Shown: positions 7,768-59,203 of the stretch, piece after piece | Numbering within the stretch: the first letter of the stretch is position 1 | Layout: every line of letters starts with the position of its first letter | Origin: Eledone cirrhosa | Taxonomy: Eukaryota | DNA: 64,000 nucleotides | Direction: 5' to 3' | NCBI GenBank assembly: GCA_964016885.1 | Contig: OZ024753.1 | Span: 32,240,001-32,304,000 of the forward strand | The notes under the pieces: model-generated | What the model saw: the letters and a program-made list of their open reading frames with translations, nothing else | What the model was told of the DNA's origin: nothing | The model's database searches: none | Made by a program: the position numbers and the translations under genes

Positions 7768-7769
<2 letters not shown>
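7164..7769 (+). mobile_element. RTE-clade LINE reverse-transcriptase fragment, internally deleted
   Basis: [33 protein letters not shown] and FLYLG motifs; bounded by (TA)n. Confidence 0.9.
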
Positions 7770-8998: not shown

Positions 8999-9568
8999 GC
9001 CGTTACACCTGATGGGATGACAGAGTTCTTTGAGATACTGGCTGGAGTGCTCCAGGGAGATACATTGGCTCCCTACCTTTATATCATCGTAGTGGACTAT
9101 TGTATGCGCCTTGCACTGGAGAAACACCACGACTCTGGCTTTTCTGTAGAACCGGCTCAGAGAAGGAGAGTTAAGGCGAAAAAGATATCAGATGCTGAAT
9201 TTGCCGACGATATTTTGCTGGTGACAAATACAGCGAAGGAGGCAGGGGATTTGATGCAGGAGGTTGAGACTGTGTCGATGAGTGTGGGGCTGAGAATGAA
9301 TGAGACTAAAACAAAATATCTGGTAGGGGGGAAGCCGCTAGAAATGGGAATACGGAAGATGATGTGGTTGAGAGGGACAGAAAAGACTGGGCGGCATGCC
9401 ACAGCTTGAGATCGGTGTGGAAGTCGGACCTTCGTAAAGACCTGAAAATCCGCCTCTCCATTGTGGTAGTGGAGTCGGTGCTGCTGTATGTCTCTGAACA
9501 TTAATCAGTATACAATGGGGATAGAAAACTCAGAGTTGTATGGGAGCCTCCCAAAAGTCAGCTCAAAA

Positions 9569-9571
<3 letters not shown>
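8999..9571 (+). mobile_element. duplicate RTE RT fragment
   Basis: Same ends as 7164-7769, a few substitutions, and an extra ~35-40-bp deletion removing [11 protein letters not shown]. Confidence 0.9.
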
Positions 9572-11566: not shown

Positions 11567-12330
11567 AGTTTAGCGAGGTTTTTTATATGAAATCGTGTGT
11601 CGAAACAGGTATTGTTATATTTGGGGAGGGTCATATTTGCGTAATATTGCCAGAATTAATACCAGAACACACTCACTGTTTGGTTGGTTTTCGCTTCTCG
11701 CTGTCTTTTATATCTGCGATCTAACTTACTCGGTCCTCAATGTTGCCATTGACTGACCGGCGGTCAAAAATAATAGATACAATATAGACACAAACACATA
11801 TATATAGTTTACATAATTTACATAAATCTTTCGTTGCACATCTGCAACATCGTCAGTGGTGTTATATTCATTGTTCCTCCTGTTGTGTTGTATGTCTACG
11901 CCATTTTTTATTCAGTCTGTCTATATATTTATTTATTTATTTGCTTGTTTGTTTATCTTATTTTATTTTGTCTTCTTTGCGCATGCGTTTGCGTATGTGT
12001 ATAGTGTTATGTGTGATGTGTGACTAGTGTGTATAGTGTTGTGTCTGCTGGGTGACTAGTGTGTGTTTATGTGCTTGTTGTTATTGTGCTTGTGTATGTA
12101 TTTTTTATCTTATTTTATTTTATTTTATTTAGTTATTTATACTTCTCTTAGGTCAGTGTTGTTTGTTTGGGTGTTGTTGTTGTTCCACTCATTCTTTCTG
12201 TTTAGCTTTGGTCTTCTAATTTCCATTTCACTGGCCTCTCTGATTTGCCTATCTGCTGGGTCATTCCTATGTTTAGATATTATTCTAATTTCTATGTTGT
12301 CTATGTTACCGTCATGTTGTTGTCTAGCAT
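11567..12330 (-). mobile_element. 5'-truncated PLE: GIY-YIG C-terminus plus pLTR
   Basis: [49 protein letters not shown] is homologous to 32903-33172; ATGACCCTCCCCAAATATAACAAT terminal motif; HHR core CTGACGA-t-GTTGCAgatgTGCAAC-GAAA at ~11819-11862 (weak stem I). Confidence 0.85.
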
Positions 12331-12997: not shown

Positions 12998-15930
12998 GTT
13001 AAAGATGTACATCCATATATGTATACTGAAATACTAGTATGTATATGAATACACACACGTATACATATGTAGATGTACCAAGTTTTTTTCACTGGTCACT
13101 TTACTGTGAGTGGCCAGCTATTCTGTATGTAAACACACAGACAAACCGGTTTTTAGAGTCATACTGGTTTTTGAGGAAACACCTTTCCTCTATTCTCCAG
13201 AAAGCCAGACAAGGAATATTGAACTAGTTTCGTTGTTGTTACAACTCATCAGCAATATTTACCCATCTTCCGGCCTCTCTAGAGAATCGTAAAAGCACAT
13301 ATCGTTATATGCTTTTTCTATGAAAATTAGTAGTGGGCAGACTAATTTGCATAGAGTGTGAGTAAGTACCGGTTCAACGGAGACGATAAAAACAAATAAC
13401 GAAACGAAATTAAATTTCGTTTCGTTTGTAACTCACTTTTGTATGACTGACGCTTAAACAATTAAGTTAAAGATGTACATCCATATATGTATACTGAAAT
13501 ACTAGTATGTATATGAATACACACACGTATACATATGTAGATGTACCAAGTTTTTTCACTGGTCACTTTACTGTGAGTGGCCAGCTATTCTGTATGTAAA
13601 CACACAGACAAACCGGTTTTTAGAGTCATACTGGTTTTTGAGGAAACACCTTTCCTCTATTCTCCAGAAAGCCAGACAAGGAATATTGAACTAGTTTCGT
13701 TGTTGTTACAACTCATCAGCAATATTTACCCATCTTCCGGCCTCTCTAGAGAATCGTAAAAGCACATATCGTTATATGCTTTTTCTATGAAAATTAGTAG
13801 TGGGCAGACTAATTTGCATAGAGTGTGAGTAAGTACCGGTTCAACGGAGACGATAAAAACAAATAACGAAACGAAATTAAATTTCGTTTCGTTTGTAACT
13901 CACTTTTGTATGACTGACGCTTAAACAATTAAGTTAAAGATGTACATCCATATATGTATACTGAAATACTAGTATGTATATGAATACACACACGTATACA
14001 TATGTAGATGTACCAAGTTTTTTCACTGGTCACTTTACTGTGAGTGGCCAGCTATTCTGTATGTAAACACACAGACAAACCGGTTTTTAGAGTCATACTG
14101 GTTTTTGAGGAAACACCTTTCCTCTATTCTCCAGAAAGCCAGACAAGGAATATTGAACTAGTTTCGTTGTTGTTACAACTCATCAGCAATATTTACCCAT
14201 CTTCCGGCCTCTCTAGAGAATCGTAAAAGCACATATCGTTATATGCTTTTTCTATGAAAATTAGTAGTGGGCAGACTAATTTGCATAGAGTGTGAGTAAG
14301 TACCGGTTCAACGGAGACGATAAAAACAAATAACGAAACGAAATTAAATTTCGTTTCGTTTGTAACTCACTTTTGTATGACTGACGCTTAAACAATTAAG
14401 TTAAAGATGTACATCCATATATGTATACTGAAATACTAGTATGTATATGAATACACACACGTATACATATGTAGATGTACCAAGTTTTTTCACTGGTCAC
14501 TTTACTGTGAGTGGCCAGCTATTCTGTATGTAAACACACAGACAAACCGGTTTTTAGAGTCATACTGGTTTTTGAGGAAACACCTTTCCTCTATTCTCCA
14601 GAAAGCCAGACAAGGAATATTGAACTAGTTTCGTTGTTGTTACAACTCATCAGCAATATTTACCCATCTTCCGGCCTCTCTAGAGAATCGTAAAAGCACA
14701 TATCGTTATATGCTTTTTCTATGAAAATTAGTAGTGGGCAGACTAATTTGCATAGAGTGTGAGTAAGTACCGGTTCAACGGAGACGATAAAAACAAATAA
14801 CGAAACGAAATTAAATTTCGTTTCGTTTGTAACTCACTTTTGTATGACTGACGCTTAAACAATTAAGTTAAAGATGTACATCCATATATGTATACTGAAA
14901 TACTAGTATGTATATGAATACACACACGTATACATATGTAGATGTACCAAGTTTTTTCACTGGTCACTTTACTGTGAGTGGCCAGCTATTCTGTATGTAA
15001 ACACACAGACAAACCGGTTTTTAGAGTCATACTGGTTTAGTCTGCCCACTACTAATTTTCATAGAAAAAGCATATAACGATATGTGCTTTTACGATTCTC
15101 TAGAGAGGCCGGAAGATGGGTAAATATTGCTGATGAGTTGTAACAACAACGAAACTAGTTCAATATTCCTTGTCTGGCTTTCTGGAGAATAGAGGAAAGG
15201 TGTTTCCTCAAAAACCAGTATGACTCTAAAAACCGGTTTGTCTGTGTGTTTACATACAGAATAGCTGGCCACTCACAGTAAAGTGACCAGTGAAAAAACT
15301 TGGTACATCTACATATGTATACGTGTGTGTATTCATATACATACTAGTATTTCAGTATACATATATGGATGTACATCTTTAACTTAATTGTTTAAGCGTC
15401 AGTCATACAAAAGTGAGTTACAAACGAAACGAAATTTAATTTCGTTTCGTTATTTGTTTTTATCGTCTCCGTTGAACCGGTACTTACTCACACTCTATGC
15501 AAATTAGTCTGCCCACTACTAATTTTCATAGAAAAAGCATATAACGATATGTGCTTTTACGATTCTCTAGAGAGGCCGGAAGATGGGTAAATATTGCTGA
15601 TGAGTTGTAACAACAACGAAACTAGTTCAATATTCCTTGTCTGGCTTTCTGGAGAATAGAGGAAAGGTGTTTCCTCAAAAACCAGTATGACTCTAAAAAC
15701 CGGTTTGTCTGTGTGTTTACATACAGAATAGCTGGCCACTCACAGTAAAGTGACCAGTGAAAAAACTTGGTACATCTACATATGTATACGTGTGTGTATT
15801 CATATACATACTAGTATTTCAGTATACATATATGGATGTACATCTTTAACTTAATTGTTTAAGCGTCAGTCATACAAAAGTGAGTTACAAACGAAACGAA
15901 ATTTAATTTCGTTTCGTTATTTGTTTTTAT
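12998..15930. mobile_element. retrozyme-like tandem array A (467-bp monomer), head-to-head inverted
   Basis: ~4.4 near-identical monomers at 12998-15038, then ~1.9 inverted monomers at 15037-15930; one HHR per monomer; (TA)n on both sides. Confidence 0.9.
15123..15167 (+). ncRNA. type I hammerhead ribozyme, family A (also + 15590-15634; - 13215-13259, 13682-13726, 14149-14193, 14616-14660)
   Basis: AATATTG-CTGATGA-GTTGT(AACA)ACAAC-GAAA-CTA-GTT^-CAATATT; perfect stems I and II; palindromic AACTAGTT stem III. Confidence 0.92.
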
Positions 15931-16194: not shown

Positions 16195-16523
16195 GAACAT
16201 TAATCAGTATACACTGAGGATGAAAAACTCAGAGCTGTATGGGAGCCTCCCAAAAGTCAGCTCAAAAGTGACACAGAGGAGACTGAGGTTGGCTGGACAT
16301 GCTCACCGACATCCAGAGTTGACATTGCACTCCGTGCTCCTTTGGGAGCCCCTACATGGACACACTGGAAGAGGAAGACCAAGGTTAACATATGTTGATG
16401 CCCTAAGGACAGACACTGGTCTGTTGGAGACGCAGGACATGGCAGCGATAATGAGGGACAGAGACCGCTGGAGAGAACTCGTCCATGGATCTCGGGAATT
16501 TTACCCGCCTTAGATAGATAGAT
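16195..16523 (+). mobile_element. RTE LINE 3' end
   Basis: [12 protein letters not shown]...LLWEP...[12 protein letters not shown]-terminal motif; the stop codon runs into a (TAGA)n tail; overlaps the end of the 7164/8999 fragments. Confidence 0.9.
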
Positions 16524-16708: not shown

Positions 16709-17839
16709 TACTCTTTTACTCTTTTACTCTTTTACCTGTTTCAGCCATCCGGCTGAGGCCATGCTGGGGCACCGCCCTTGTTGCTACACATTTTATCTCC
16801 AGCCTGTATAGGTTGGCCACTGGTGTAGGAGGGAGTTTGTTGCTGCTGCCCTTAGGTTTCCCTCGTGTCTTGCTGTGGGCTCATCCGGGATTCTGGATAA
16901 CAAGGTGTCGAGATGTTTCTTAAAGACATCCACCTCCACGTCATGCAAGTCTCGCAGATGTCTCGGCAGCCTGTTGAAGAGTTGAGGGCCCTTGAATCCC
17001 AGGCTATTGCAATACCTGCTCCTTATTCTAGATGTGGAAGACGGGACCTTTGGCACCACACAGTGACGTCCTGTTCGACGGTTGGTCCAGCTCCCAATGC
17101 CAAAGTTTGGTGCTAGTCCCTCCAGGATTTTCCACATGTAGATCACTGCGTATCTCTCCCGTCTTCGCTCCAAGGAGTAGAGGTTCAGTTCCTTCAGCCT
17201 CTCCCAGTAGCTTGTCTCCCTCATCTTGGCAATCCTCTTGGTGTAGCTTCGCTGGATTGCCCCAAGCTCTGTGGTTAGTTTGACACTATGGGGTGACCAC
17301 AGCTGGGAGCAGTAGTCCAGGCGGCTTAGGACAAAAGTCCTCCACAGTGTCAACATGGTGTCTCGATCTCTTGTAAGGAAAGTCCTCAAGATCCAGCCAG
17401 CGAATCGTCTACATGCTGTCGCCACCTTCATGATGTGTGAAGAAAAAGATGCATCATCGCTCATGTCTATGCCCAGGTCTCGTATCGATTTTGACACGGG
17501 GATATCGGTCCCTCCTGGTCCTGTGTAGCTGTGTTCCGCTATATTTGTGTTTGTGTTTGCAGGTTTGTATTGTAGGGCTTGGAATTTGCCAGCATTAAAC
17601 TGCATGTTGTTTTCTTCCGCCCATCTGTATATGGCATCCAGATCCTGCTGTAAGAGGGCAGCGTCAGCCGGGTTTTTGATTGCCTGTGCTACCTTAGTGT
17701 CATCAGCATAGCTAGTGAGGGATGTTGTTGCATGCACCACAGAGGGCATGTCCAAGAGAGCCACCAAAAACAGTAGTGGTCCCAGGACTGTCCCCTGAGG
17801 CACCCCACTTGTTATCGGTGTTTCCCTCGAGAGGGCCCC
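16709..17839 (-). mobile_element. CR1/L2-group LINE, 5'-truncated ORF2 (16793-17803) with 3' tail
   Basis: [34 protein letters not shown] and [11 protein letters not shown] motifs; open frame to the stop; (AAAAGAGT)n-type tail. Confidence 0.92.
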
Positions 17840-19626
<1,787 letters not shown>

Positions 19627-19677
19627 AAATATTAAATAAATAATGAATAAACAATTTCTTATATTAAACAAAAAGAG

Positions 19678-19832
19678 TTCATTATTTAACGATCGTTTCT
19701 AGGATATATATGTGTTAGAATTGGTATGCATATTAAACAGATCTATGTACAAAATTATACAAAATTATACAAATTATCAAGATTAAATATACATACCAAA
19801 CACATATATACGCCGTCTTCAGAAATAATGAA
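19678..19832 (-). ncRNA. hammerhead ribozyme with long stem II (left-arm copy)
   Basis: Reverse complement of 30695-30849. Confidence 0.75.
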
Positions 19833-20777
19833 GTATATTTATTGATAATAACAACAATTCAAAATTTCAGGTCCGTTTGGGAACAAAAATTGACCAATGA
19901 AAACACAAAGGGTTAAATGCAGTTCGGTGTGTGTATATACATGTAAAACCCTTACACATATTTTACAAAAATGTATGTATAAAATTGTATACGCATACTA
20001 AAAGGATGGATGCGAACACAAAATTTCAAGGTTAATGTCTCTGTGAGTTATTGACACTTATGAAGTTAAGTATATAAATATATTTTTTCATACTCACACA
20101 TATCCGTACAATCACACATACACGCGCGTATATGCATAAATATACACATAACCACGAACATACAAACACACACACACCCCCACTCACATTTATATATGTG
20201 GATATAAAATCATAAGCACATGGATATTAATTCACTCACATAAAACACTGGCATACACATTTTCAGATCAAGATACAGAAATTAGGTGGGAGGGGGGGGG
20301 GGGTCAGTATTCAACGGTCTGAACAGACTGCCTAATATAAATGTATCTATAAACTAAGAAAAATAAAACAAATAAAACATAATAAATAAAACATTAAGGA
20401 GGAAAGAATAGAAAGAAGAACAGAAAAAAGAAAAAAGAAAAAAGAAAAAAGAAAAAAGAAATATATCAAGAAAATAAATATACACATATACACATACATA
20501 CACATACATATATATATATATATAATATATATATATATATACACACACACATATAAATATATATAAAAAATATATATAAAAAAAAACCTACATATATATA
20601 TACACACATAGACACTTACACATCCATACATAAATATAACACACATATATAAATACATACATACATATAACCACATCCACACTAAGAACATACATACACA
20701 CACATATATAAACATATACATATACACACATACATACATATACACATATACATACAAATACACATACACATATATAT

Positions 20778-20808
<31 letters not shown>

Positions 20809-21134
20809 CACATATATATACATACATATACATATACACGTACATATACACACACATATACATATAATCACACATACTATACAGACACAGATATATATAA
20901 CCACACACATACATGCAAATATATAACACTTACATACTAATATACATACAGATATACACATACATAGCTATATATACACACAAATATATACAGATTTACA
21001 TATATACATACAGACAAATACTTACGCATCTATATATCGGTATATCCATACTAACACCAACTACACTATCACACAACATAGAAATACAAAGAGAAAGGTA
21101 TATACCTATACACACATACATATACAAATAGAAA

Positions 21135-21184
<50 letters not shown>

Positions 21185-21211
21185 TACACATACATATATA
21201 TATACATATAT

Positions 21212-21261
<50 letters not shown>

Positions 21262-21513
21262 TACACATACAAATACACATACATATACATACAGATATAT
21301 ACACATACATACATGTACACACACACAGAAATATATACGCATACATACATACACACATACATATAAAGTCATACACACATATACATCTACACGAACATAC
21401 ACATACACATATATAAAGTATATATACACACACACACACACACGCAACACATACACACATACACATATATATAAAAAAATAAATAATAAAGATATATACA
21501 TATATATATATAT

Positions 21514-21558
<45 letters not shown>

Positions 21559-21930
21559 CATACACACACACCTAAATATACATACACATACATACATACA
21601 TAGACATACATGTACGTACATATACGTACATCGATATACATATATATATATATATACATACACACATAGACATATACATACATACACACACAACTTACAT
21701 ACACACATATATATACATGTATATTCATACATAGAATTAGAAATATAATCATACATACATATGCACTTACTTATAGTCATATATACCAATACATACGCAT
21801 CCATTTATGCGTATATACATAAAAAACACTACAACGTTACCTAACTCAGACATACAAATAAAATATTAATAAAAAGGCATATGTATATACATACACACAC
21901 GCATTAATAGAGATATATATATACACACAT

Positions 21931-22002
<72 letters not shown>

Positions 22003-22116
22003 ACTCATACATATACACATATATATATATATATATATATATACAAAGATACCTACACATTCATACCACCATAAATACACATACAAACACCCACATATAC
22101 ATATATATACACACAC

Positions 22117-22165
<49 letters not shown>

Positions 22166-22284
22166 AAAAACAGACATGCACATATATATATATATTTTTC
22201 TACACTCATATATAGACATATTATATACATATACATAACTTCACTTATACATGCATACACATAAGTTATATTATAATAATAAAA

Positions 22285-22317
<33 letters not shown>

Positions 22318-22346
22318 ACATATATATATATATATATATACATACC

Positions 22347-22394
<48 letters not shown>

Positions 22395-22454
22395 CAAACA
22401 CATACATACACATATACACACATATGAATATAGATATATATTCACACATAGACA

Positions 22455-22511
<57 letters not shown>

Positions 22512-23997
22512 ATATACACAGACACATATACACACTCACATATATATATCTGTGTGCATGCACACACACATATATACATACATACATATATATACACATA
22601 AACACATATATGTGCATACATGCACATACACACACATATATCACATAGATACGGAGATAGACATATAAATAGAGAGACATACATATATATACAACACACA
22701 TACACACACATACATACACACGCATATACATATACATATATATATACATATATATATTCCTATATATACACATAACATATATATATACACATATATACAC
22801 ATACATACACATATACGTACACACATTCACATACACATACATATATAGATGCATATATACATACATATACATACATACACACACTCATATATACACACAC
22901 AATCTTACATTCATATTTGCATGCACATATATGTATTTTTATATTTAGATATAAATACCCAAACCTATATAGACACCTACCTACATATATATTCATACAT
23001 AGACGCTTACAAATACAGATGATAATAGTATGGGGGAAAAGGGGGGGTTTGGAGAAGGGGATCAAAGTAAATATATGTTTCAAGAAACATAGAAAATTTT
23101 CCGTATCTTTATCCAATATATGTTTTTTTTACATATTTTCAGTGTTATAAAATACAACAAATTAAAACTAAGGCAAAATCTATGCATCTCAAAATAAACA
23201 AGTATACCATTAACTATATGTTAACTAAACCAAAGATAGTTAACATATTGATTTCTAAGGTGTAAATTAGTTAGGTTTATAATATTTGAAGCAGAATTTT
23301 GAAGTTAAATAGTAGTAGAGTATTAATTACAGTATAACTAAATTAAAGTTAATAACATTATGGTGTCAATATTAGGAAATGAAATTAGTAATAGGGAAAA
23401 AACAAATAAAATAAAATAAAGTAGTACATCGGTAGTAGAATATAAAATATAGGTTAACTAAATTAAAAATTATATATTTATTTCTATAGTATATGTTAAT
23501 TAGGTATACAATACATAAAGCAGATATTGTATTTCATCAATAGCATAATATAATTATATGCAAATAGAAATCAAAATTAATACGCATACATATACATATA
23601 CATACACATACACATATACACACATATACACACAAATATATATATATATATATATACATATATATACATATACATACACACACACATACACATACACATA
23701 CACATATACATATACATATCTTTTTCAAAAAATTGCATAGAATATATTAACTAGGTATATATCCAAAACACATCGCATTCTATGATTACATGACATTCTG
23801 CAATTCGTCTGTATAAGGATACTAATATTAAGCAAATTAAAATTAAATTTTTAGGTTGATTAAAACTAAAATCAAATTATAAATATATTTCTAAAATGTA
23901 TATTAATTAGGTCAATAATACTAAAAATTATTTCTCTGTCATTGGAACCTCCTTAAAAAACATACCAATACCTTCTAAGGATGACTTCTTACTCCTT

Positions 23998-26367
23998 ATG
24001 ATTCAGAAAACTAATAATTTTATCAGAAGGGTTAGATGGAGAGCCTACCACTTCGATAGAAAATCTATACAAGCAGATCGGAAATATATGTATGATTTCA
24101 ATACTTACAAGAATCCACCACACAACTTTTTACTTGAAGACTTCGAGAAAGACCTTTTTAATTTAATTAAACACCTCAAATTTAAAAAGTATAAATCCGT
24201 CTTTCAAAAGGACCTTGATTCTACCCTATTGGACCTAAAAAAGTCTAAAAAAATCCATGTCCACTCGGACAAAACTGGTAACTTGTATCATATGGACATT
24301 GAACATTATAACGAGTTCATATATAAAGAACTCAGAAAAAATTATAAAAAATCTAATAATGTGTCACTCACCAACATCAACAACAAAACACACAACATAG
24401 TAAAAAAACTAAACATTGAAGATAGAACTGAACCTTTGGCATTGAAAAGACCACACTTCAACCTGAAAGATCACAAATCTAACTTTAACTCAAATCCTTC
24501 TATTAGACTTATATGTCCTTCCAAATCAGATATTGGAATAATTAGCAAAAAAATTTTAGATAGAGTCATCCCACAAATAAAAAAACACGTTATTTTACCA
24601 CTCTGGGAAAACACCTCCCAGGTAATTAACTGGTTTAAAAATATTAGGTGTAAATCTTCTGCTTCTTTCCTACAATTTGATATAGATAATTACTATTCTT
24701 CTATATCACCTATACTCCTGAACAAAGCATTGATATTTGCTAAAAATAGATCTAACTTAACTTTGGATGACATTAACATTATTACACATGCTAGACTAAC
24801 ACTTATTGAATTTCAGAATGAATACTGGACCAGAAACACATACAGTAATCTTTTTGATATTACTATGGGTTCAAGTGATTCCGCCCAAATTACTGATCTT
24901 GTGGGCCTCTTTCTCCTTTTCAACATAAATGCCTCTTTTCCCCACCTCAAAGGTGGTTTATATCGTGATGACTGTCTTCTTCTTTCTAACAACCTTAGCC
25001 TTTCAGAAATTGAAAAAAACAAAAAACATATTAGAACTTTCCTTAAAGACTATTATAATCTTAATATTACTTTTGAAAAAACAAGTAAAGTAGTAAATTT
25101 CCTAGATATAACTTTAGATTTAGCTACGGGTATCTACCAACCTTACCATAAACCTAACCAAAACTTACATTACATACACTCACAATCTAATCACCCTAAA
25201 TCTATCCTTAAAAACCTTGCATATAATATATCACTTAGAATTTCTAACCTTTCTTCTAACCAAGATGTATTTGATAAAAATGCGACCTTCTATAACGAAG
25301 CTCTAGATAGAAGTGGCCACAAAAATAGATTAGAGTATATACCTTCTACTAAAAATACTGAAAGCATGCAACATAATATTACCAACAAACACCAAATGAA
25401 AAGTACACACCTAAATGCCACCCACACTATACCCCAAAATACCAAATCTTCTAATATAAAGTATAGTAACTCTCAAAAAACTACTCATCATACAACTCTA
25501 ATAAATATTAATAATAAAACTCCTAATAAAAAAGATAAAACACCTAAATCTAAAAATATAACTAAAAATAGTTGTGGTGAGATCATTAACATTAATCCTC
25601 CTAGTAAAAATCACGATACAACCTATAAAAATAATAAAAATAATAAACAACATAGAAACCGTAATAGACGGGTTACTTGGTATAATGCTCCTTTTAATTT
25701 ACAAGTTAAGGATAATATTGCTAAAAAATTTTTTTATATCCTTGAGAAAAACTTCCCGCCAAACCACAAATACCATCAAATCTTAAATAGGTCTACAGTT
25801 AAATTCTCATACTCTACAACAAATAACATAAAACAAAATATAAGTGCATATAATGCATATAAATGTAAGAAAACCATAACTATACCACCAGTACATCAAA
25901 TTAACCATAATATCTCCTCAAATACAGAATTAACGAAAGGATGTAACTGTAGAAACAAAGCAAACTGCCCATTAAAAGGGAATTGTCTTGTTAACAACAT
26001 AGTCTATAAATGTAATGTTAAAACTAAAGATTCTATTTGCTCATATATAGGAGCTACCTCTAACAATTTTAAGACAAGGTTTAATACCCACAAGCATAGT
26101 TTTAAAAATGCTGCACTGGCTAATACAACATCTCTAGCTGAAAAAATCAATAGTTATAAAAATAAGAATATAAAATATGATTTGACCTGGAGTGTGCTCA
26201 AAAGAGCCACCCCTTATCAAAATAATAGAAATGAATGTAGATTATGTTCCCAAGAACTATTTGAAATAATGAAGTCTAAGGATATCTTATTAAATAAACG
26301 ACAGGAATTAATTATATCGTGTAATCATAAACTAAAAAAAACATTTAAATATTATAAACCTAATTAA
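23998..26367 (+). CDS. Penelope-like RT plus GIY-YIG endonuclease (Naiad-type), 789 aa
   Basis: DKT, FDI..YYSSI, MG, YRDD, FLD, PYHKPN..SNHP; CxCx5C (CNCRNKANC); IVYKC..YIG; C-terminal CRLC; an in-frame SLKNIP motif lies just upstream of the first ATG. Confidence 0.93.
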   Translation: MIQKTNNFIRRVRWRAYHFDRKSIQADRKYMYDFNTYKNPPHNFLLEDFEKDLFNLIKHLKFKKYKSVFQKDLDSTLLDLKKSKKIHVHSDKTGNLYHMDIEHYNEFIYKELRKNYKKSNNVSLTNINNKTHNIVKKLNIEDRTEPLALKRPHFNLKDHKSNFNSNPSIRLICPSKSDIGIISKKILDRVIPQIKKHVILPLWENTSQVINWFKNIRCKSSASFLQFDIDNYYSSISPILLNKALIFAKNRSNLTLDDINIITHARLTLIEFQNEYWTRNTYSNLFDITMGSSDSAQITDLVGLFLLFNINASFPHLKGGLYRDDCLLLSNNLSLSEIEKNKKHIRTFLKDYYNLNITFEKTSKVVNFLDITLDLATGIYQPYHKPNQNLHYIHSQSNHPKSILKNLAYNISLRISNLSSNQDVFDKNATFYNEALDRSGHKNRLEYIPSTKNTESMQHNITNKHQMKSTHLNATHTIPQNTKSSNIKYSNSQKTTHHTTLININNKTPNKKDKTPKSKNITKNSCGEIININPPSKNHDTTYKNNKNNKQHRNRNRRVTWYNAPFNLQVKDNIAKKFFYILEKNFPPNHKYHQILNRSTVKFSYSTTNNIKQNISAYNAYKCKKTITIPPVHQINHNISSNTELTKGCNCRNKANCPLKGNCLVNNIVYKCNVKTKDSICSYIGATSNNFKTRFNTHKHSFKNAALANTTSLAEKINSYKNKNIKYDLTWSVLKRATPYQNNRNECRLCSQELFEIMKSKDILLNKRQELIISCNHKLKKTFKYYKPN

Positions 26368-28045
26368 CAACATTATTTTTGAAATTAATTTAATTTAAAT
26401 GTTAGTTAACCTATATATTTAATTTAATTAAAATTTTATTACAGATCAGAATATAAAATATTATGTAATCATAAATTGTGAAAAACCTTTAAATATTACT
26501 AATATATACTTAGTAATTTAATTTATAGATTAATTTTAATTTATTTAAACCTTTTATTATTTTTATTATAATTCTTTTACAGATAAAATATAACAAAATA
26601 ATATCGTGTATCCAATGACAGAGAAATAATTTTTAGTATTATTGACCTAATTAATATACATTTTAGAAATATATTTATAATTTGATTTTAGTTTTAATCA
26701 ACCTAAAAATTTAATTTTAATTTGCTTAATATTAGTATCCTTATACAGACGAATTGCAGAATGTCATGTAATCATAGAATGCGATGTGTTTTGGATATAT
26801 ACCTAGTTAATATATTCTATGCAATTTTTTGAAAAAGATATGTATATGTATATGTGTATGTGTATGTGTATGTGTGTGTGTATGTATATGTATATATATG
26901 TATATATATATATATATATATTTGTGTGTATATGTGTGTATATGTGTATGTGTATGTATATGTATATGTATGCGTATTAATTTTGATTTCTATTTGCATA
27001 TAATTATATTATGCTATTGATGAAATACAATATCTGCTTTATGTATTGTATACCTAATTAACATATACTATAGAAATAAATATATAATTTTTAATTTAGT
27101 TAACCTATATTTTATATTCTACTACCGATGTACTACTTTATTTTATTTTATTTGTTTTTTCCCTATTACTAATTTCATTTCCTAATATTGACACCATAAT
27201 GTTATTAACTTTAATTTAGTTATACTGTAATTAATACTCTACTACTATTTAACTTCAAAATTCTGCTTCAAATATTATAAACCTAACTAATTTACACCTT
27301 AGAAATCAATATGTTAACTATCTTTGGTTTAGTTAACATATAGTTAATGGTATACTTGTTTATTTTGAGATGCATAGATTTTGCCTTAGTTTTAATTTGT
27401 TGTATTTTATAACACTGAAAATATGTAAAAAAAACATATATTGGATAAAGATACGGAAAATTTTCTATGTTTCTTGAAACATATATTTACTTTGATCCCC
27501 TTCTCCAAACCCCCCCTTTTCCCCCATACTATTATCATCTGTATTTGTAAGCGTCTATGTATGAATATATATGTAGGTAGGTGTCTATATAGGTTTGGGT
27601 ATTTATATCTAAATATAAAAATACATATATGTGCATGCAAATATGAATGTAAGATTGTGTGTGTATATATGAGTGTGTGTATGTATGTATATGTATGTAT
27701 ATATGCATCTATATATGTATGTGTATGTGAATGTGTGTACGTATATGTGTATGTATGTGTATATATGTGTATATATATATGTTATGTGTATATATAGGAA
27801 TATATATATGTATATATATATGTATATGTATATGCGTGTGTATGTATGTGTGTGTATGTGTGTTGTATATATATGTATGTCTCTCTATTTATATGTCTAT
27901 CTCCGTATCTATGTGATATATGTGTGTGTATGTGCATGTATGCACATATATGTGTTTATGTGTATATATATGTATGTATGTATATATGTGTGTGTGCATG
28001 CACACAGATATATATATGTGAGTGTGTATATGTGTCTGTGTATAT

Positions 28046-28100
<55 letters not shown>

Positions 28101-28160
28101 TGTCTATGTGTGAATATATATCTATATTCATATGTGTGTATATGTGTATGTATGTGTTTG

Positions 28161-28204
<44 letters not shown>

Positions 28205-28233
28205 GGTATGTATATATATATATATATATATGT

Positions 28234-28266
<33 letters not shown>

Positions 28267-28385
28267 TTTTATTATTATAATATAACTTATGTGTATGCAT
28301 GTATAAGTGAAGTTATGTATATGTATATAATATGTCTATATATGAGTGTAGAAAAATATATATATATATGTGCATGTCTGTTTTT

Positions 28386-28426
<41 letters not shown>

Positions 28427-28540
28427 GTGTGTGTATATATATGTATATGTGGGTGTTTGTATGTGTATTTATGGTGGTATGAATGTGTAGGTATCTTTGT
28501 ATATATATATATATATATATATGTGTGTATATGTATGAGT

Positions 28541-28610
<70 letters not shown>

Positions 28611-28982
28611 ATGTGTGTATATATATATCTCTATTAATGCGTGTGTGTATGTATATACATATGCCTTTTTATTAATATTTTATTTGTATGTCTGAGTTAG
28701 GTAACGTTGTAGTGTTTTTTATGTATATACGCATAAATGGATGCGTATGTATTGGTATATATGACTATAAGTAAGTGCATATGTATGTATGATTATATTT
28801 CTAATTCTATGTATGAATATACATGTATATATATGTGTGTATGTAAGTTGTGTGTGTATGTATGTATATGTCTATGTGTGTATGTATATATATATATATA
28901 TGTATATCGATGTACGTATATGTACGTACATGTATGTCTATGTATGTATGTATGTGTATGTATATTTAGGTGTGTGTGTATG

Positions 28983-29027
<45 letters not shown>

Positions 29028-29278
29028 ATATATATATATATGTATATATCTTTATTATTTATTTTTTTATATATATGTGTATGTGTGTATGTGTTGCGTG
29101 TGTGTGTGTGTGTATATATATCTTTATATATGTGTATGTGTATGTTCGTGTAGATGTATATGTGTGTATGACTTTATATGTATGTGTGTATGTATGTATG
29201 CGTATATATTTCTGTGTGTGTGTACATGTATGTATGTGTATATATCTGTATGTATATGTATGTGTATTTGTATGTGTA

Positions 29279-29326
<48 letters not shown>

Positions 29327-29353
29327 ATATATGTATATATATATGTATGTGTA

Positions 29354-29405
<52 letters not shown>

Positions 29406-29731
29406 TTTCTATTTGTATATGTATGTGTGTATAGGTATATACCTTTCTCTTTGTATTTCTATGTTGTGTGATAGTGTAGTTGGTGTTAGTATGGATATAC
29501 CGATATATAGATGCGTAAGTATTTGTCTGTATGTATATATGTAAATCTGTATATATTTGTGTGTATATATAGCTATGTATGTGTATATCTGTATGTATAT
29601 TAGTATGTAAGTGTTATATATTTGCATGTATGTGTGTGGTTATATATATCTGTGTCTGTATAGTATGTGTGATTATATGTATATGTGTGTGTATATGTAC
29701 GTGTATATGTATATGTATGTATATATATGTG

Positions 29732-29762
<31 letters not shown>

Positions 29763-29987
29763 ATATATATGTGTATGTGTATTTGTATGTATATGTGTAT
29801 ATGTATGTATGTGTGTATATGTATATGTTTATATATGTGTGTGTATGTATGTTCTTAGTGTGGATGTGGTTATATGTATGTATGTATTTATATATGTGTG
29901 TATATTTATGTATGGATGTGTAAGTGTCTATGTGTGTATATATATATGTAGGTTTTTTTTTATATATATTTTTTATATATATTTATA

Positions 29988-30036
<49 letters not shown>

Positions 30037-30694
30037 ATGTATGTGTATATGTGTATATTTATTTTCTTGATATATTTCTTTTTTCTTTTTTCTTTTTTCT
30101 TTTTTCTGTTCTTCTTTCTATTCTTTCCTCCTTAATGTTTTATTTATTATGTTTTATTTGTTTTATTTTTCTTAGTTTATAGATACATTTATATTAGGCA
30201 GTCTGTTCAGACCGTTGAATACTGACCCCCCCCCCCTCCCACCTAATTTCTGTATCTTGATCTGAAAATGTGTATGCCAGTGTTTTATGTGAGTGAATTA
30301 ATATCCATGTGCTTATGATTTTATATCCACATATATAAATGTGAGTGGGGGTGTGTGTGTGTTTGTATGTTCGTGGTTATGTGTATATTTATGCATATAC
30401 GCGCGTGTATGTGTGATTGTACGGATATGTGTGAGTATGAAAAAATATATTTATATACTTAACTTCATAAGTGTCAATAACTCACAGAGACATTAACCTT
30501 GAAATTTTGTGTTCGCATCCATCCTTTTAGTATGCGTATACAATTTATACATACATTTTTGTAAAATATGTGTAAGGGTTTTACATGTATATACACACAC
30601 CGAACTGCATTTAACCCTTTGTGTTTTCATTGGTCAATTTTTGTTCCCAAACGGACCTGAAATTTTGAATTGTTGTTATTATCAATAAATATAC

Positions 30695-30849
30695 TTCATT
30701 ATTTCTGAAGACGGCGTATATATGTGTTTGGTATGTATATTTAATCTTGATAATTTGTATAATTTTGTATAATTTTGTACATAGATCTGTTGAATATGCA
30801 TACCAATTCTAACACATATATATCCTAGAAACGATCGTTAAATAATGAA
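30695..30849 (+). ncRNA. type I hammerhead ribozyme with ~116-nt stem II
   Basis: TTCATTATTT-CTGAAGA-[30712-30827]-GAAA-CGATC-GTT^-AAATAATGAA; 10-bp perfect stem I; AACGATCGTT palindrome. Confidence 0.78.
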
Positions 30850-31035
30850 CTCTTTTTGTTTAATATAAGAAATTGTTTATTCATTATTTATTTAATATTT
30901 TATCTTGTACTCTGTATACCGTTTATCTTTCACCGAAAGTGGTTTTTCATTACATCTCTTCTTTCCATGATATCCGGAATACATTGAGTTCTTCATACGG
31001 ATTGGACACTACCGTAAACTCTTGGTAGATTTATC

Positions 31036-31287
<252 letters not shown>

Positions 31288-31657
31288 GGTAAGTTTAAGT
31301 AGGAGTCCCAGCTCACTGGTATCAATCCCACGGAACTCAACATTGCTCTCACTGATCATTTCTACGCATTTCTCCACAGCAAAATCCACGTCAATAGATG
31401 GATACAGGGACACAACATCCATACTACCTATTATGCAGTTTGTTAGATCCCTAGATCGGTTACTCTCGCCGATTCTGCTGAGGAGGGCCTCCGTGCTGTC
31501 ACATACATCTGGGGACATTTCAATGATGGGGCGTATGATCACGGAGAGGAAGTAGGACAGTCTGTAGTTACTAGCAATGTTAGCTCCACAGACTGGCCGT
31601 GTTGGTGGTCCCGTGACAGGGTCACTGCCCGTTTTATGGTCTTTTCGAAGCCCATAG
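31288..31657 (-). pseudogene. inverted 5' segment of second PLE RT
   Basis: [38 protein letters not shown], running into (TA)n. Confidence 0.88.
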
Positions 31658-33560
31658 TATTAATTACCTAGACACATATGACCTTAGCAACCTGTGCCCT
31701 ACAAGACCAGCAAGAGGCAGACCACCTACCATTACCCCAATGGCCAAGAAAACCCACACAGATAGATGGAACGGGTGGACCAAAGCCATACGGACACCCG
31801 AAAACCACGATGAACTAAATAAAATGATTGCACATGCGGTGGGGGGCCAGCATAAAATTAACCCTTAAGGAACATATGTTCAAATTTAATGGAAAAACAT
31901 ATGCCCAAGAGGAAGGAGCAGCCATTGGTGTTAGCATTGCAGGCGACATAGCTAACTTATTCATGGTATGGTGGTACAGTAGACTTAAACTTAAACTTAA
32001 ATAACAATTAGAAGACCCCTTAACCCTGATAATGTACTCCCGCTACGTTGATGATATAAACATTGTAGTTAAAACACCCCCACTAGAGAACGGTCAGGAA
32101 CTAGAGAAAAACACAATGGAGTGCATCCAGCAAATAGCTAACTCCATCCACCAGAGTATTAGAGTTACTATAGACTACCCAAGTAAATACCCCAACCATC
32201 GATTACCTGTACTAGACACAGAGCTCTGGTTAGATACCATTAATAACAAAAAACAAATCCTCCATTCCCATTATGCCAAACCCATGACTTCCAAATATCT
32301 GATCCACCGAAACTCAGCTGTTTCGGACCATACCAAAATCAACATACTGATTGCGGATTTGGTACGGGTGATGAGAAACGTGTCCCGCATGTGCAACGCC
32401 GAAGAACTAGAGAGACACATACAACACTTCATCCACCGTATGCAGTTCTCTGGTTACAATCAGAGAGATAAAATCAGAGTGTATTGAGGAGTTGAACCAA
32501 ATGGGAAAAAATAGTAAATAATGACACAAATGGGACCTGCCCCTTGTATAGGAGCAAATTTTGGAATAGAATAGAAAGAACTAGGAATAAGGCTAATAGA
32601 ATAAACTCATGGTATGATAGCAATAAATACCAGAGTGTAATGTTCATCGATACAACCCCTAGAGTTGAATTAGCTTACAAATTTAGAAGGGCCCTAGATA
32701 AACATAAACTCAATATTAAGATAGTAGAAAGACCAGGTACCTCCGTAAAAACATTTATTAGCAAGACATACCATTTTCAAAGACCCCCCTATATAGATAA
32801 GAAATGTATAATCTGTAAATTAAGCCCCCATATTAACTGTAAAACTAGAAATGTAGTATATAGAATAAGATGTACTGAAGGACAAATAGAGACAAAAATA
32901 TAGTGTACATAGGTGAGACAGCTCGTAGTGTTGGGGAACGGATAAATGAACACTGGCGAGACCTTCAAGATAGTAAAGAATCATCTGTACTCTACCTACA
33001 TGCTAAAATAGAATATAAGGGTAAATTAGAGAACATAGAAATAAAAATAGAATCTACACACAGAAAAGACGCAATGTTTAGACAAATCACAGAGGCAATA
33101 AACATAAAAGAATTACAACCAAAATTAAATAGAAAACATGAGTGGAACAGCAACATCACAACTTACAATTAAGGACAAAATGAAAACACACACGCACATA
33201 GAACAAACAACCAACCTGTAACATGTAAATATACAAATAAATAAACGAATATAAACACACAGACACCCGGATGTGGCGCATGCGCAGACGGAGCACACAA
33301 CACACACACAGAAACAAAATGGCGTAAGACAGAACAAAGGAGAGGCACAAAAACAAAGAAAAAAATCCCCCAGTCACTGAAGAAGTCACAGAATGTGTGA
33401 CGAAAGAACTTTGACAATATATAAACAACCATCGGTTGTGGAACCAACCAACCAACCGCAAATTTATAAATTCCTGAATTTATAAATTTATTATAATAAC
33501 TTGAAGTGAAAGCTACTGGCGCGTGTGTTTCTTATTGGCAACATGACCCTCCCAAAGTAT

Positions 33561-33566
<6 letters not shown>
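31654..33566 (+). pseudogene. second PLE (Neptune-like): RT 3' half, GIY-YIG and pLTR, with stops/frameshifts
   Basis: FKFNGKTYAQEEGAAIG, RYVDD, LPVLD, CIIC..CKTRNVVYRIRC..YIGETARS..ERINEH. Confidence 0.9.
33373..33415 (+). ncRNA. minimal hammerhead ribozyme in PLE pLTR
   Basis: GTCA-CTGAAGA-a-GTCACA(GAATG)TGTGAC-GAAA-GAA-CTT^-TGAC. Confidence 0.75.
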
Positions 33567-33626
<60 letters not shown>

Positions 33627-39100: not shown

Positions 39101-39343
39101 CAGAAAAAAACTAAGAGAAGGGGAAGGAAAGGCGATATACACCGAGTTGGTAGTTGTAGTTTGCTGATCGCACTTAAGTATCCATTTATTACGATAAGCA
39201 AGGTACTGGCTTGTAGTGTGTGTGTGTTTGGGGGGGGGGGGGGTATAGTTAGGAAGTAGTTATTGAGTGAAATTAGTTAGCGAGAAAGTGGTGTAGTAGT
39301 CTCGGGTCCATATTATGTTAAGTTACCATATTATGTTAAGTTA

Positions 39344-39530
39344 AGAGGCGGTGGATTGGCAGTATCGGTAGAAGGTCGGACGCCATGCTTTCCAGCATAG
39401 TTACGTCCCTTTACGATCTGAGTTCAAATCCCGCCGAGGTTGACTTTGCCTTTCATCCTTACGGGGTCGATAAAATAAAGTACCAGTAATGCACTGGGTA
39501 ATTGCTGGCCTTGTGCCTAAAGTAGAAACA
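39344..39530 (+). mobile_element. full-length tRNA-derived SINE with TSD
   Basis: A-box TGGCAGTATCGG, B-box GTTCAAATCC, Meta-like central domain; TSD ATTATGTTAAGTTA at 39330-39343 and 39531-39544. Confidence 0.9.
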
Positions 39531-40608
39531 ATTATGTTAAGTTACTTTTATAGTGAGAAAATGTAGCCTTCAGTTTGTGGATGCAGTATAACGATCGTTC
39601 GATTCTGTCATTTAGTAAGTTGTTTTTAGATTTCAAGATATGAAAGAGTGCATAATCTGCAGTACTTTAATCCACTCGGATATGCACTAGCGCTGGATAA
39701 TTTATCCCATTTTAAGGTGAACTGCCGGTTGTATTCACGGTGTTACTAGGTCTTATTAACGAGTGTGGTTACATAATGGTGTTCAGGATGTTTAATCGAA
39801 AATCAATGACGATACCAGCGTGATTAAAAGGAGGTAGTGGTAGACTCGACGTAATATCATTTCTGGTCATTTGATTCGAATAAATAACTACCAATTTGCG
39901 CATAGCATGACTAGGCTGTGTAACTACTAAAGAAACATTTGTAAGCACTCGGAATAAATTACCTTTTTATGATGTCTACCTGTATTATTAATCATTCTTC
40001 ATATATATATATATATATACATAAAAACATATATATACATATATAAATATATTTATATATGTACATACATACATATGCACAGACACACATATATTCATAT
40101 ATTTATGATTAATTCAATAGATTCAGTAGTAATAATTCCTATTACATATATAATACAGATCAATTACAAATCTTTCTCAGATCTTATATGTTATTCAGTT
40201 CGTGTTTTATTGTATTCTACAAGCGAAAAATTTCAAACGTCATTATTAGAATAATTCATTCTAAAAGTATTAAACTATAGTTTTCGCCTACATCGAGTAA
40301 CCCGATTATTATTATAATATCAGAAAATGACTGAGAGTCTGCGATGAATTAGTTTTATTACGTGACAGGTTTCTGAAATCATAAAAGGCCGTGTAAATAT
40401 ATATTTAGAAATAAAATTCATAAACGAAAGCAATAAATTTGGAGTAGTACACACACACATGCTAAAACACACGCATACACACACATATGCATATATCTCT
40501 TCGGTTTAAATCTCTCTATGCTCTGTCTTTTAAATACACACAATATACTAACATATGCATATTCACACAAATACACAGACAAAAGCACCCCCTACTATAT
40601 ATATATAT

Positions 40609-47074: not shown

Positions 47075-49836
47075 ATAAATTGAAACAAAATGAAAACGAA
47101 ATTTCATTTCTCACTCTTAGTATGGCACTTACTTAAATGTAAGTATGCATGTGTACGTACATACATATATGTATACAGACGTACAGTAGCATGCACATAT
47201 ATATATATATATACATATATACATACATATGCATACAGGTACACATACATATATGCACGTATCAGTTTAGCGGCGCTAACGTCGCTTTGTTCGTTTGTAA
47301 ACAAACTGAACAGCCTGAATTTATGCCATACGGTGTTAAGGCAACCACGTCACCTTTTTGTTCAACACTGACACAGGAACGATGTACTAGTTTCAAGCTT
47401 GTTAGCTATCATCAGCACCGTTTACCCATCTGCCAGATAGTTGAACGTTCGAAAGTATATACTTTCCTTATGAAAATTAACGGCTGAGCAGCCTAATTTG
47501 CATATTGAGTGAGTTAAATCGGTCAGGCATACCGAAAACGATAAATTGAAACAAAATGAAAACGAAATTTCATTTCTCACTCTTAGTATGGCACTTACTT
47601 AAATGTAAGTATGCATGTGTACGTACATACATATATGTATACAGACGTACAGTAGCATGCACATATATATATATATATACATATATACATACATATGCAT
47701 ACAGGTACACATACATATATGCACGTATCAGTTTAGCGGCGCTAACGTCGCTTTGTTCGTTTGTAAACAAACTGAACAGCCTGAATTTATGCCATACGGT
47801 GTTAAGGCAACCACGTCACCTTTTTGTTCAACACTGACACAGGAACGATGTACTAGTTTCAAGCTTGTTAGCTATCATCAGCACCGTTTACCCATCTGCC
47901 AGATAGTTGAACGTTCGAAAGTATATACTTTCCTTATGAAAATTAACGGCTGAGCAGCCTAATTTGCATATTGAGTGAGTTAAATCGGTCAGGCATACCG
48001 AAAACGATAAATTGAAACAAAATGAAAACAAAATTTCATTTCTCACTCTTAGTATGGCACTTACTTAAATGTAAGTATGCATGTGTACGTACATACATAT
48101 ATGTATACAGACGTACAGTAGCATGCACATATATATATATATATACATATATACATACATATGTATACAGGTACACATACATATATGCACGTATCAGTTT
48201 AGCGGCGCTAACGTCGCTTTGTTCGTTTGTAAACAAACTGAAGAGCCTGAATCATAAATTCAGGCTGTTCAGTTTGTTTACAAACGAACAAAGCGACGTT
48301 AGCGCCGCTAAACTGATACGTGCATATATGTATGTGTACCTGTATACATATGTATGTATATATGTATATATATATATATATGTGCATGCTACTGTACGTC
48401 TGTATACATATATGTATGTACGTACACATGCATACTTACATTTAAGTAAGTGCCATACTAAGAGTGAGAAATGAAATTTCGTTTTCATTTTGTTTCAATT
48501 TATCGTTTTCGGTATGCCTGACCGATTTAACTCACTCAATATGCAAATTAGGCTGCTCAGCCGTTAATTTTCATAAGGAAAGTATATACTTTCGAACGTT
48601 CAACTATCTGGCAGATGGGTAAACGGTGCTGATGATAGCTAACAAGCTTGAAACTAGTACATCGTTCCTGTGTCAGTGTTGAACAAAAAGGTGACGTGGT
48701 TGCCTTAACACCGTATGGCATAAATTCAGGCTGTTCAGTTTGTTTACAAACGAACAAAGCGACGTTAGCGCCGCTAAACTGATACGTGCATATATGTATG
48801 TGTACCTGTATGCATATGTATGTATATATGTATATATATATATATATGTGCATGCTACTGTACGTCTGTATACATATATGTATGTACGTACACATGCATA
48901 CTTACATTTAAGTAAGTGCCATACTAAGAGTGAGAAATGAAATTTCGTTTTCATTTTGTTTCAATTTATCGTTTTCGGTATGCCTGACCGATTTAACTCA
49001 CTCAATATGCAAATTAGGCTGCTCAGCCGTTAATTTTCATAAGGAAAGTATATACTTTCGAACGTTCAACTATCTGGCAGATGGGTAAACGGTGCTGATG
49101 ATAGCTAACAAGCTTGAAACTAGTACATCGTTCCTGTGTCAGTGTTGAACAAAAAGGTGACGTGGTTGCCTTAACACCGTATGACATAAATTCAGGCTGT
49201 TCAGTTTGTTTACAAACGAACAAAGCGACGTTAGCGCCGCTAAACTGATACGTGCATATATGTATGTGTACCTGTATGCATATGTATGTATATATGAATA
49301 TATATATATATATGTGCATGCTACTGTACGTCTGTATACATATATGTATGTACGTACACATGCATACTTACATTTAAGTAAATGCCATACTAAGAGTGAG
49401 AAATGAAATTTCGTTTTCATTTTGTTTCAATTTATCGTTTTCGGTATGCCTGACCGATTTAACTCACTCAATATGCAAATTAGGCTGCTCAGCCGTTAAT
49501 TTTCATAAGGAAAGTATATACTTTCGAACGTTCAACTATCTGGCAGATGGGTAAACGGTGCTGATGATAGCTAACAAGCTTGAAACTAGTACATCGTTCC
49601 TGTGTCAGTGTTGAACAAAAAGGTGACGTGGTTGCCTTAACACCGTATGGCATAAATTCAGGCTGTTCAGTTTGTTTACAAACGAACAAAGCGACGTTAG
49701 CGCCGCTAAACTGATACGTGCATATATGTATGTGTACCTGTATGCATATGTATGTATATATGTATATATATATATATATGTGCATGCTACTGTACGTCTG
49801 TATACATATATGTATGTACGTACACATGCATACTTA
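47075..49836. mobile_element. retrozyme-like tandem array B (466-bp monomer), head-to-head inverted
   Basis: ~2.5 monomers at 47075-48252, then ~3.4 inverted monomers at 48253-49836; HHR per monomer; within (TA)n. Confidence 0.9.
48622..48666 (+). ncRNA. type I hammerhead ribozyme, family B (also + 49088-49132, 49554-49598; - 47378-47422, 47844-47888)
   Basis: AACGGTG-CTGATGA-tAGCT(AACA)AGCTt-GAAA-CTA-GTA^-CATCGTT. Confidence 0.9.
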
Positions 49837-54200: not shown

Positions 54201-54840
54201 AGTATTTGAGATTCCCCAAAGTATATTTAGCATCACAATCAGTTTTGCAGATACCATACGAATAGATATTGGCAATGGAAATTATCTACGTCTAAAGGAC
54301 TATAAAAATCTAAACATATCAAGTTATAAAAGCAATAAGAAAATGGAGAGAGAGAATGAGAGAGAAAGAGAGAGAGAGAGGGGGGGGGGGGAGAGAGAGA
54401 GAGAGAGAAGGAAGGAGAGAGAAGGAGGGAGAGATACAAAGTACAGCTGCAATCGGTGTCAAAATAGGTTTAGAATCTTCCAGTTTCGAAGTTCTATAAT
54501 CATTTTATTCTGTCGATAATGCCTAATGCTTCCCAACACAACATCTCAGGACTTGATCATACAACTCACGTTCTTATTCGAAATTTGTAATCTTTCAAAC
54601 TTTGGTTTCGATTTTTCATTTCAAACGTTTTGTATGACAATTTTGTGAGTTGACTGAGTATCTGCAGCATTGCAGAGTAATTAAGAAGTAGCACCTCAAT
54701 CATAGGTTCTCAGATTTAATGCTACTAAGTAGCATCATGGGCAAGTGTCATTTACCATAACTTCAAGTCGATCCAAGCCTGGTGAATGATATTTAGTTGA
54801 TGGAAACTGCTTAAACGCCTGCTGCATTGACTATGCCAAT

Positions 54841-55345
54841 AATTGTGTCTAATTGAGGCACAAGGCCAGCAATTACCCAGTGCAGTACTGGTACTTTATT
54901 TTATCGACCCCGTAAGGATGAAAGGCAAAGTCAACCACGGCGGGATTTGAACTCAGATCGTAAAGGGACGTAACTATGCTGGAAAGTATGGGGTCCGACC
55001 CTCTACTGATACTGCCAATCTACCTACTATGCCAATAATGGTGTCTAATTGAGGCACACATTCAACGATTTGTAGGAATAGAGAACCCGATTACACGGAA
55101 TCCAGTACGTGGCTGATACTTTATTTTATCGACCTCGGAGGGATTTGAACACAGAAAGTAAAGAGTCGAACAAATACTGCTAAGCATTTTGTCCGACGAC
55201 CTAACGATTCTGCCAACCCACCGCCCTAACTATATATTTATGCTATAATTGTTTCTACTTTTGACACAAGGTCAGCAATGTGAAGGGAAGGGGAAAGTCG
55301 ATTAATACTTTATATTATCGATCCGGTAAGGGTGAAAGGCCCCGA
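54841..55345 (-). mobile_element. nested cluster of three tRNA-derived SINEs
   Basis: Young copy ~54862-55025, older copy ~55040-55228, partial copy ~55246-55345. Confidence 0.8.
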
Positions 55346-59036: not shown

Positions 59037-59203
59037 TTTCACAGGTGCCATGTCTCCCACATTTAACATGTTTCTATCAAGAATACTAAAACTACATATA
59101 CAATTAGGTCGATGAATGATGTGAAACTCCCTCCCTTTCGATCAGATGTCCAAGGAAACATATTAAAGAAAGAGGAGATGTAGGGAACTATTTGGAAATA
59201 ATT

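Follow-up and report, generated by a model that had tools for sequence, protein, structure and literature searches.

The 64-kb window, that is, the whole stretch of DNA analyzed here, contains a real and well-resolved 5'-inverted insertion of a Penelope-like element (PLE), which resembles the product of L1 twin priming and is unlike the canonical PLE inverted repeat. The copy measures 2.28 kb, consists of two pieces, namely an inverted 5' piece and a forward 3' piece, and is set between two (TA)n tracts identified by TRF, the left at 31039-31287 (95% pure) and the right at 33565-33625. We consider it quite likely that the copy arose in a single retrotransposition event, with twin priming on one sense RNA.

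Judged by its letters, the insert appears to be a decayed, 5'-truncated PLE of the Neptune/Nematis type that entered (TA)n. The inverted 5' piece (31288-31653, minus strand, 366 nt) has an open reverse transcriptase (RT) frame, GLRKDHK...LKLT, whose translation is 80% identical to residues 252-374 of P0002, one of the homologs; a protein-representative search supplied further homologs that were used purely as references. The forward ORF piece (31657-33172, plus strand), as delimited by its translations and by tblastn to P0002, P0008, and P0046, matches residues 379-788 of P0002 and comprises the RT core with YVDD, the thumb, a linker, and a GIY-YIG endonuclease (EN); it is dead, with two in-frame stops and three frameshifts. 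The endonuclease (32850-33151, plus strand) lies at the C-terminal end, as in the full-length homologs, and was recognized by tblastn as well as by a Pfam GIY-YIG match (E 5.6e-4; 20.6 bits, under the cut-off of 22.6). Pfam names neither RT piece of this copy, and among the homologs its RVT_1 model is weak for P0002 and absent for three others. The overall layout is that of an EN+ PLE, with a single ORF in which a PLE-type RT is followed by a C-terminal GIY-YIG, collinear with the full-length homologs by tblastn.

Between the RT and the endonuclease, a CX4CxxC linker (32790-32816, plus strand) corresponds to CTENYCTVC in P0002 and is found in other family copies among the run contigs as well; its first Cys is altered in this copy and present elsewhere, contigs of all four public runs that were compared (X1, X4, X5, and X6) having another letter at 32791. 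The endonuclease has a CCHH motif, read as RIRC...C...YIGET...H...H from the window together with P0002, P0008, and P0046, with the region of the second Cys frameshifted in this copy. A CX2-5CxxC linker between RT and EN and the CCHH motif are given as marks of the Neptune/Nematis clade in the accessible text of PMC8557442. The C-terminal EN+ PLEs of Neptune/Nematis thus have the same RT, followed by a CX4CxxC linker and a GIY-YIG with CCHH, and share the (TA)n target; the present PLE is likened to them by motifs, the two clades being taken together.

The best protein matches are predicted Octopus vulgaris proteins, which are 72-82% identical and point to a cephalopod as the probable host. Two Octopus gene models, P0010 and P0016, join part of the RT of this PLE to exons of the host (dynein regulatory complex subunit 6-like), and these fusions are probably annotation artefacts. 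In X1, 21,409 contigs match the element, and their summed depth climbs from ~9e4 to 1.5e6 toward the 3' end (33573), as expected of an abundant, 5'-truncated family. No other close copy of this PLE lies inside the 64-kb window, and the single dead copy has no evident host function.

The 3' untranslated part, or pseudo-LTR (33173-33564, plus strand), was delimited with the help of a related remnant and of X5 loose ends, and runs to a tail-less 3' end, where the element stops at ...TATAACA/ATATAT. The right (TA)n tract that follows would be the primary priming end. That the forward piece reaches the normal PLE 3' end is indicated by a tailed relative in the window and by the depth rising toward 33573. 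The relative in question is a 5'-truncated, non-inverted remnant of a related PLE (11567-12329, minus strand; 72% over 165 nt), which has an equal 3' end and then ~45 more letters before its own (TA)n; at least nine X5 contigs go on with similar letters behind 33568 (agreement 0.71). These extra ~45 letters represent the optional PLE tail, usually of 30-40 nt, which is absent from this copy. The optional tail has been tied to two RT start sites in PAc (Poseidon of Anolis carolinensis, an anole PLE studied in vitro; accessible text of PMC11167929), and we liken the optional tail of the present family to it. At the primary end, 3-4 nt of AT match the target, the tailed relative reading ACAATA and then CC and X5 contigs reaching 33568; this match at a tail-less end is a weak second hint that pairing aids priming.

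Within the pseudo-LTR, a minimal type I hammerhead-like motif (33373-33415, plus strand) was recognized by eye from CTGAAGA, stem II, GAAA, and a closing GTCA/TGAC. Its core and stems fit by eye and its fold has a z of -2.1; the motif is without an Rfam match, no hammerhead being called by Rfam on the pseudo-LTR. Across the whole window, Rfam returned mostly microsatellite-driven miRNA noise among the 150 of 507 matches listed.

The two pieces are contiguous in other members of the family, as the preliminary description had proposed, and this holds both for proteins and for DNA contigs. That description had read the minus strand as ...CTT ACC TAT A running into the (TA)n tract, and the plus strand as starting with ATAGTATTAATTAC at 31654; letters and coordinates are right in both cases, with the element-only letters of the inverted piece ending at 31288 and 31284-31287 being TA repeat. 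The translation of the inverted piece ends ...LLLKLTY at this outer boundary. Of the 95 homologs, 56 align with both pieces, and the other 39 with the inverted piece alone. Across the joint LTY/xxxYL (the slash marking the joint), the gap is zero residues in 53 of the 56 and -3, -2, and +2 in the remaining three, and the nearest octopus proteins read LRLTY/NSEYL or LRLTY/DNEYL. In DNA, a strand-switch joint from 31287 to 31654, with three letters fitting either side, is present in at least two contigs of X1, at least one of X6, and at least one of X4, and is not among the X5 contigs listed, so that three of the four public runs have the joint. In at least seven further X1 records, the match breaks off before 31284 in a loose end that, once reverse-complemented, agrees with the forward piece from 31657 onward apart from a few differences.

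The unflipped copies in contigs of X1, X6, and X4 read ACC TATA GT, which upholds the merged reading predicted in the preliminary description, and TATA agrees with the RNA as well as with the target tract. In X6, a minor variant (depth 23, against 106 for the major form) has C in place of the first T of TATA; if this variant were the parent, it would break the TATA match to the target. Another X6 joint, from 31294 to 31845, runs sense to sense and is an internal deletion with no inversion. An origin of the two pieces in two different PLE families is ruled out, because both match the same proteins, and so are two independent insertions, which would not abut within 4 nt.

The signature had also been termed base-precise, which is apt for the reconstruction and too strong for the breakpoints. 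The preliminary description had passed over a 3-nt match at the inner junction, where ATA (31654-31656) is common to both pieces, being part of the inverted piece as well. These three letters form the Tyr codon of YGLRK, which is invariant in 19 of 19 aligned proteins, and, among the matches listed, contigs of X4 and X5 agree with the inverted piece as far as 31656, where X5 record 17 ends and behind which X4 has a loose end; the shared letters of the strand-switch joint agree. Because ATA fits both pieces, the breakpoints are fixed only within 3-4 nt, and the true breakpoint offset may be anything from a 4-nt loss to a 3-nt overlap (-4 to +3 nt). Short matches are thus found (i) at the outer end, where the four letters TATA (31284-31287, minus strand) are common to the target tract and the element RNA, as seen from the strand-switch joint and the loose ends in unflipped copies, and (ii) at the inner junction, where the three letters are ATA. 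With thresholds that were chosen after seeing the data, the chance per random element position of a match of at least 4 nt to a TA end is 0.014-0.017, and that of a junction match of at least 3 nt between two random ends is 0.05.

Twin priming, the model of Ostertag and Kazazian 2001 as it is described in PMC2912911 and PMC11702581, has one target end prime at the RNA 3' end and the other inside the same RNA (PMC2912911), and leaves short matches at the target ends and at the inversion junction (PMC2912911, PMC11702581). It is standard for L1, with about 30% of recent insertions (accessible text of PMC2912911). Among de novo L1 inversions, internal breakpoints show 1-10 bp deletions in 22 of 32 and duplications in 10 of 32, and 71% have a match of at least 2 bp at the 5' junction (accessible text of PMC11702581). 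The offset of -4 to +3 nt seen here fits twin priming in that de novo L1 inversions show such small deletions and duplications. The L1 geometry that the preliminary description had recognized is indeed present, the outer boundary of the inverted piece and the start of the forward one being neighbors in the RNA, with short matches at both junctions. This copy therefore shares with 5'-inverted L1 an inverted 5' piece and a forward 3' piece that are adjacent in the RNA, microhomology at both junctions, and an offset of a few nucleotides; it differs from L1 in having a PLE RT and a GIY-YIG nickase rather than ORF2p, no poly(A), and a (TA)n target. Every readable mark of L1 twin priming is present in this copy, the target-site duplication being unreadable because both flanks are (TA)n.

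From the observed geometry, adjacency, two short matches, and absence of duplicated arms, we infer a double nick, a pairing step, an order of steps, and a single RNA for both primers. The PLE protein would nick both strands of the (TA)n tract, and one 3' end would prime cDNA at the normal tail-less pseudo-LTR site, from which synthesis would run ~1.9 kb toward the RNA 5' end. The other 3' end, ...TATA, would pair with the self-complementary TATA in the codons ACC TAT AGT, which is the proposed second priming site, and would there prime a second cDNA of 366-369 nt. The first cDNA would halt at, or up to 3 nt inside, the footprint of the second primer, and the two cDNA ends would meet via three complementary bases, with subsequent fill-in.

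Internal priming by the (TA)n end at a TATA of the PLE RNA had been suggested in the preliminary description; the 4-nt match and the geometry agree with it, the priming step itself being presumed. In vitro, the purified anole PLE protein acts on both strands, cutting as well as extending them, favors AT-rich DNA, and starts inside the RNA; it is modeled as a dimer (accessible text of PMC11167929). A PLE is therefore plausibly capable of twin priming, given the extension of both strands, the internal starts, and the dimer model. The resemblance has a limit in that the RNA sites at which PAc starts are fixed and show no match to the cut DNA end (PMC11167929), whereas here the second start would be ectopic and has a 4-nt target match; pairing at TATA may thus not have been needed, as the anole protein starts cDNA at unmatched RNA sites. 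Counted against twin priming are that the copy is a single event, that the target-site duplication is not legible, that the junction is unseen in the independent contigs listed, and that the other inverted inserts in the window do not repeat the neat signature.

Canonical PLE head-to-head insertions have several traits in common with this copy, namely the 5' head-to-head junction, 5' truncation, a microsatellite target, and the optional 3' tail. The accessible text of PMC8557442 describes flanking inverted repeats formed by inverted 5'-truncated copies as a common and standard PLE feature, and ascribes PLE tandem and inverted structures to "still undefined features" of the cycle; self-priming on an antisense template, proposed from junction palindromes, is one standing model for PLE inversions (accessible text of PMC3846280). 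By this usual route, the present copy would have arisen through fold-back self-priming on an antisense template, or from two RNAs primed from pseudo-LTRs, with the duplicated arms later trimmed. A junction palindrome of the kind in question is present in a 466-bp array of the window (described below), and one X1 contig has another head-to-head junction in the family (31653 to 33108). However, the canonical form duplicates sequence, has pseudo-LTR ends on both sides, and often has a junction palindrome (accessible text of PMC8557442 and PMC3846280), whereas this copy has neither a duplicated arm nor a junction palindrome and has its second end within the RT gene. The two arms share nothing (longest match 11 nt, E 0.13), the junction has no stem of at least 4 bp, the inverted arm ends mid-ORF and not in the pseudo-LTR, and it would be highly coincidental for two arms trimmed separately to end up within 4 nt of each other. 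Because the inversion is non-duplicating and palindrome-free, fold-back does not fit; the fold-back or two-RNA route is largely refuted for this copy, and we regard it as very improbable.

An inversion of DNA after insertion would yield letters identical to those of twin priming. On this account, an ordinary 5'-truncated copy was joined to (TA)n at TAT, and breakage and repair involving the flank and the internal TATA later turned its first 366 nt around. Such an event, if reciprocal, gives zero net gain or loss, as here; TATA is its own reverse complement, and both AT tracts and inverted structures abound in the window. The left break would, however, have to fall within 3 nt of the old 5' junction. 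By our reasoning, crossover at any of the 113 TATA words in the left tract would leave at least five AT letters inside, and just one 3-nt register leaves the observed ATA, although later slippage could hide the difference. Moreover, 5'-boundary inversions recur in related families with non-reciprocal gaps and overlaps, as set out next, and we consider a DNA inversion unlikely.

Among 80 related metagenome loci, L001-L046 are clear relatives, L047-L080 were left out for their weak, short RT matches, and in seven loci both strands match the RT. L021, L040, and L044 have in common one inversion internal to the ORF, whose pieces are separated by a gap of ~780 nt and match over 3 nt at the junction; another, in L042, has a 36-nt overlap and a junction match of ~1 nt. 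These are two further independent events of a similar general kind in other PLE families, less neat than the present copy and none of them in (TA)n. At the outer end of the L042 inversion lies a third piece, 52 nt long and derived from the endonuclease region, and the inverted arm (L042:121-432) consists of two pieces that are ~1.2 kb apart in the element, which suggests a template jump during the second cDNA. Three loci were dropped as support, L014 and L043 because they run off the contig end and L035 because it is a classic inverted 3' end; L039, whose 31-nt inverted piece is a copy of an internal part of the forward arm, was not assigned to a class.

The inverted junction is known from the window alone, as no contig among the matches listed in the four runs crosses it, and several other near-perfect inverted structures are present in the window. 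Both observations would agree with an artefact of assembly or long reads that flipped a piece beside the long TA tract. However, private alleles of this copy (e.g., at 31447 and 31737) are absent from X1 and X6, so those runs are without this copy and the absence of the junction from them carries little weight. Read artefacts of the fold-back type contain duplicated sequence, of which this structure has none. Inversions of a similar kind are found, further, in the independent metagenome contigs, and we consider an artefact very improbable.

There may be more than one route to inverted inserts, and the window holds several others. At 12998-15930, tandem 467-bp hammerhead units of retrozyme-like kind (Rfam HH9, 36 bits, E 1.5e-7, under the gathering score) lie in (TA)n, with 4.4 units inverted relative to 1.9 units, a gap of 120 nt modulo the unit, a 2-nt inner match, and a 0-nt outer match. 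The related 466-bp hammerhead array at 47075-49836 (HH9, 18.5 bits, E 0.046) has 2.5 units against 3.4 inverted units in a TA-rich repeat; its junction is a fold-back palindrome with a 5-nt loop, which favors self-priming or snap-back, and its outer match is 2 nt. A second PLE (19623-31038) has an ORF (23911-26364, plus strand) with an uninterrupted 818-aa frame and the motifs RWR, DKT, and CxCX5C, which are Hydra-clade motifs according to section 11 of PMC8557442. It is flanked by 4.3-kb inverted arms (19623-23946 and 26611-30903) that are 99% alike. Its right arm goes on for 135 nt further to (TA)n, and a CTGAAGA...GAAAC motif lies antisense to the ORF at 30705; the template would have been antisense to the ORF if the (TA)n side of the right arm is the primed end.

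Further repeats in the window include two near-identical LINE RT fragments in tandem (7164-7768 and 8999-9571), with TA-rich repeats between them, which from their motifs we take to be RTE-like; a matching 3' part of this LINE is apparently found at 16195-16510, on the far side of the PLE remnant and the 467-bp array. The 3' part of another LINE RT, presumably CR1-like from its motifs, is cut at a TA-rich tract (16796-17840, minus strand). A SINE- or MITE-like repeat of ~190 bp has five dispersed copies on both strands that are 92-98% alike (39343-39534, 54839-55024, 57869-58054, 59203-59393, and 60285-60466).

We found no literature applying twin priming to PLEs, in a search outside of which most subscription journals and supplements lay, and none on twin priming in inverted non-mammalian LINEs. 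Papers on Penelope and twin priming included, by title and abstract start, none on PLE inversions, and the word "twin" is absent from the accessible text of PMC8557442, PMC3846280, and PMC12910113, which are on or include PLEs. The mechanism proposed here is known from another retroelement class, and no PLE report of it was found.

A non-duplicating inversion follows directly from the priming of both target ends on one sense RNA, and both-ends priming also agrees with the in vitro extension of both strands by a PLE (accessible text of PMC11167929). We further suggest, tentatively and with more doubt than belief, that head-to-head PLE insertions may generally be twin-priming products, normal and mis-primed, of a two-RT complex on sense RNA. 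If this were true, the second target end would normally prime at its cognate site, the upstream pseudo-LTR of a tandem transcript, to give the classic inverted pseudo-LTR, and it could use as an alternative start any internal AT word able to pair with a (TA)n end. Copies like the present one would then be mis-primed cases that expose the route, and twin priming would replace antisense self-priming as the main explanation of PLE inversions.
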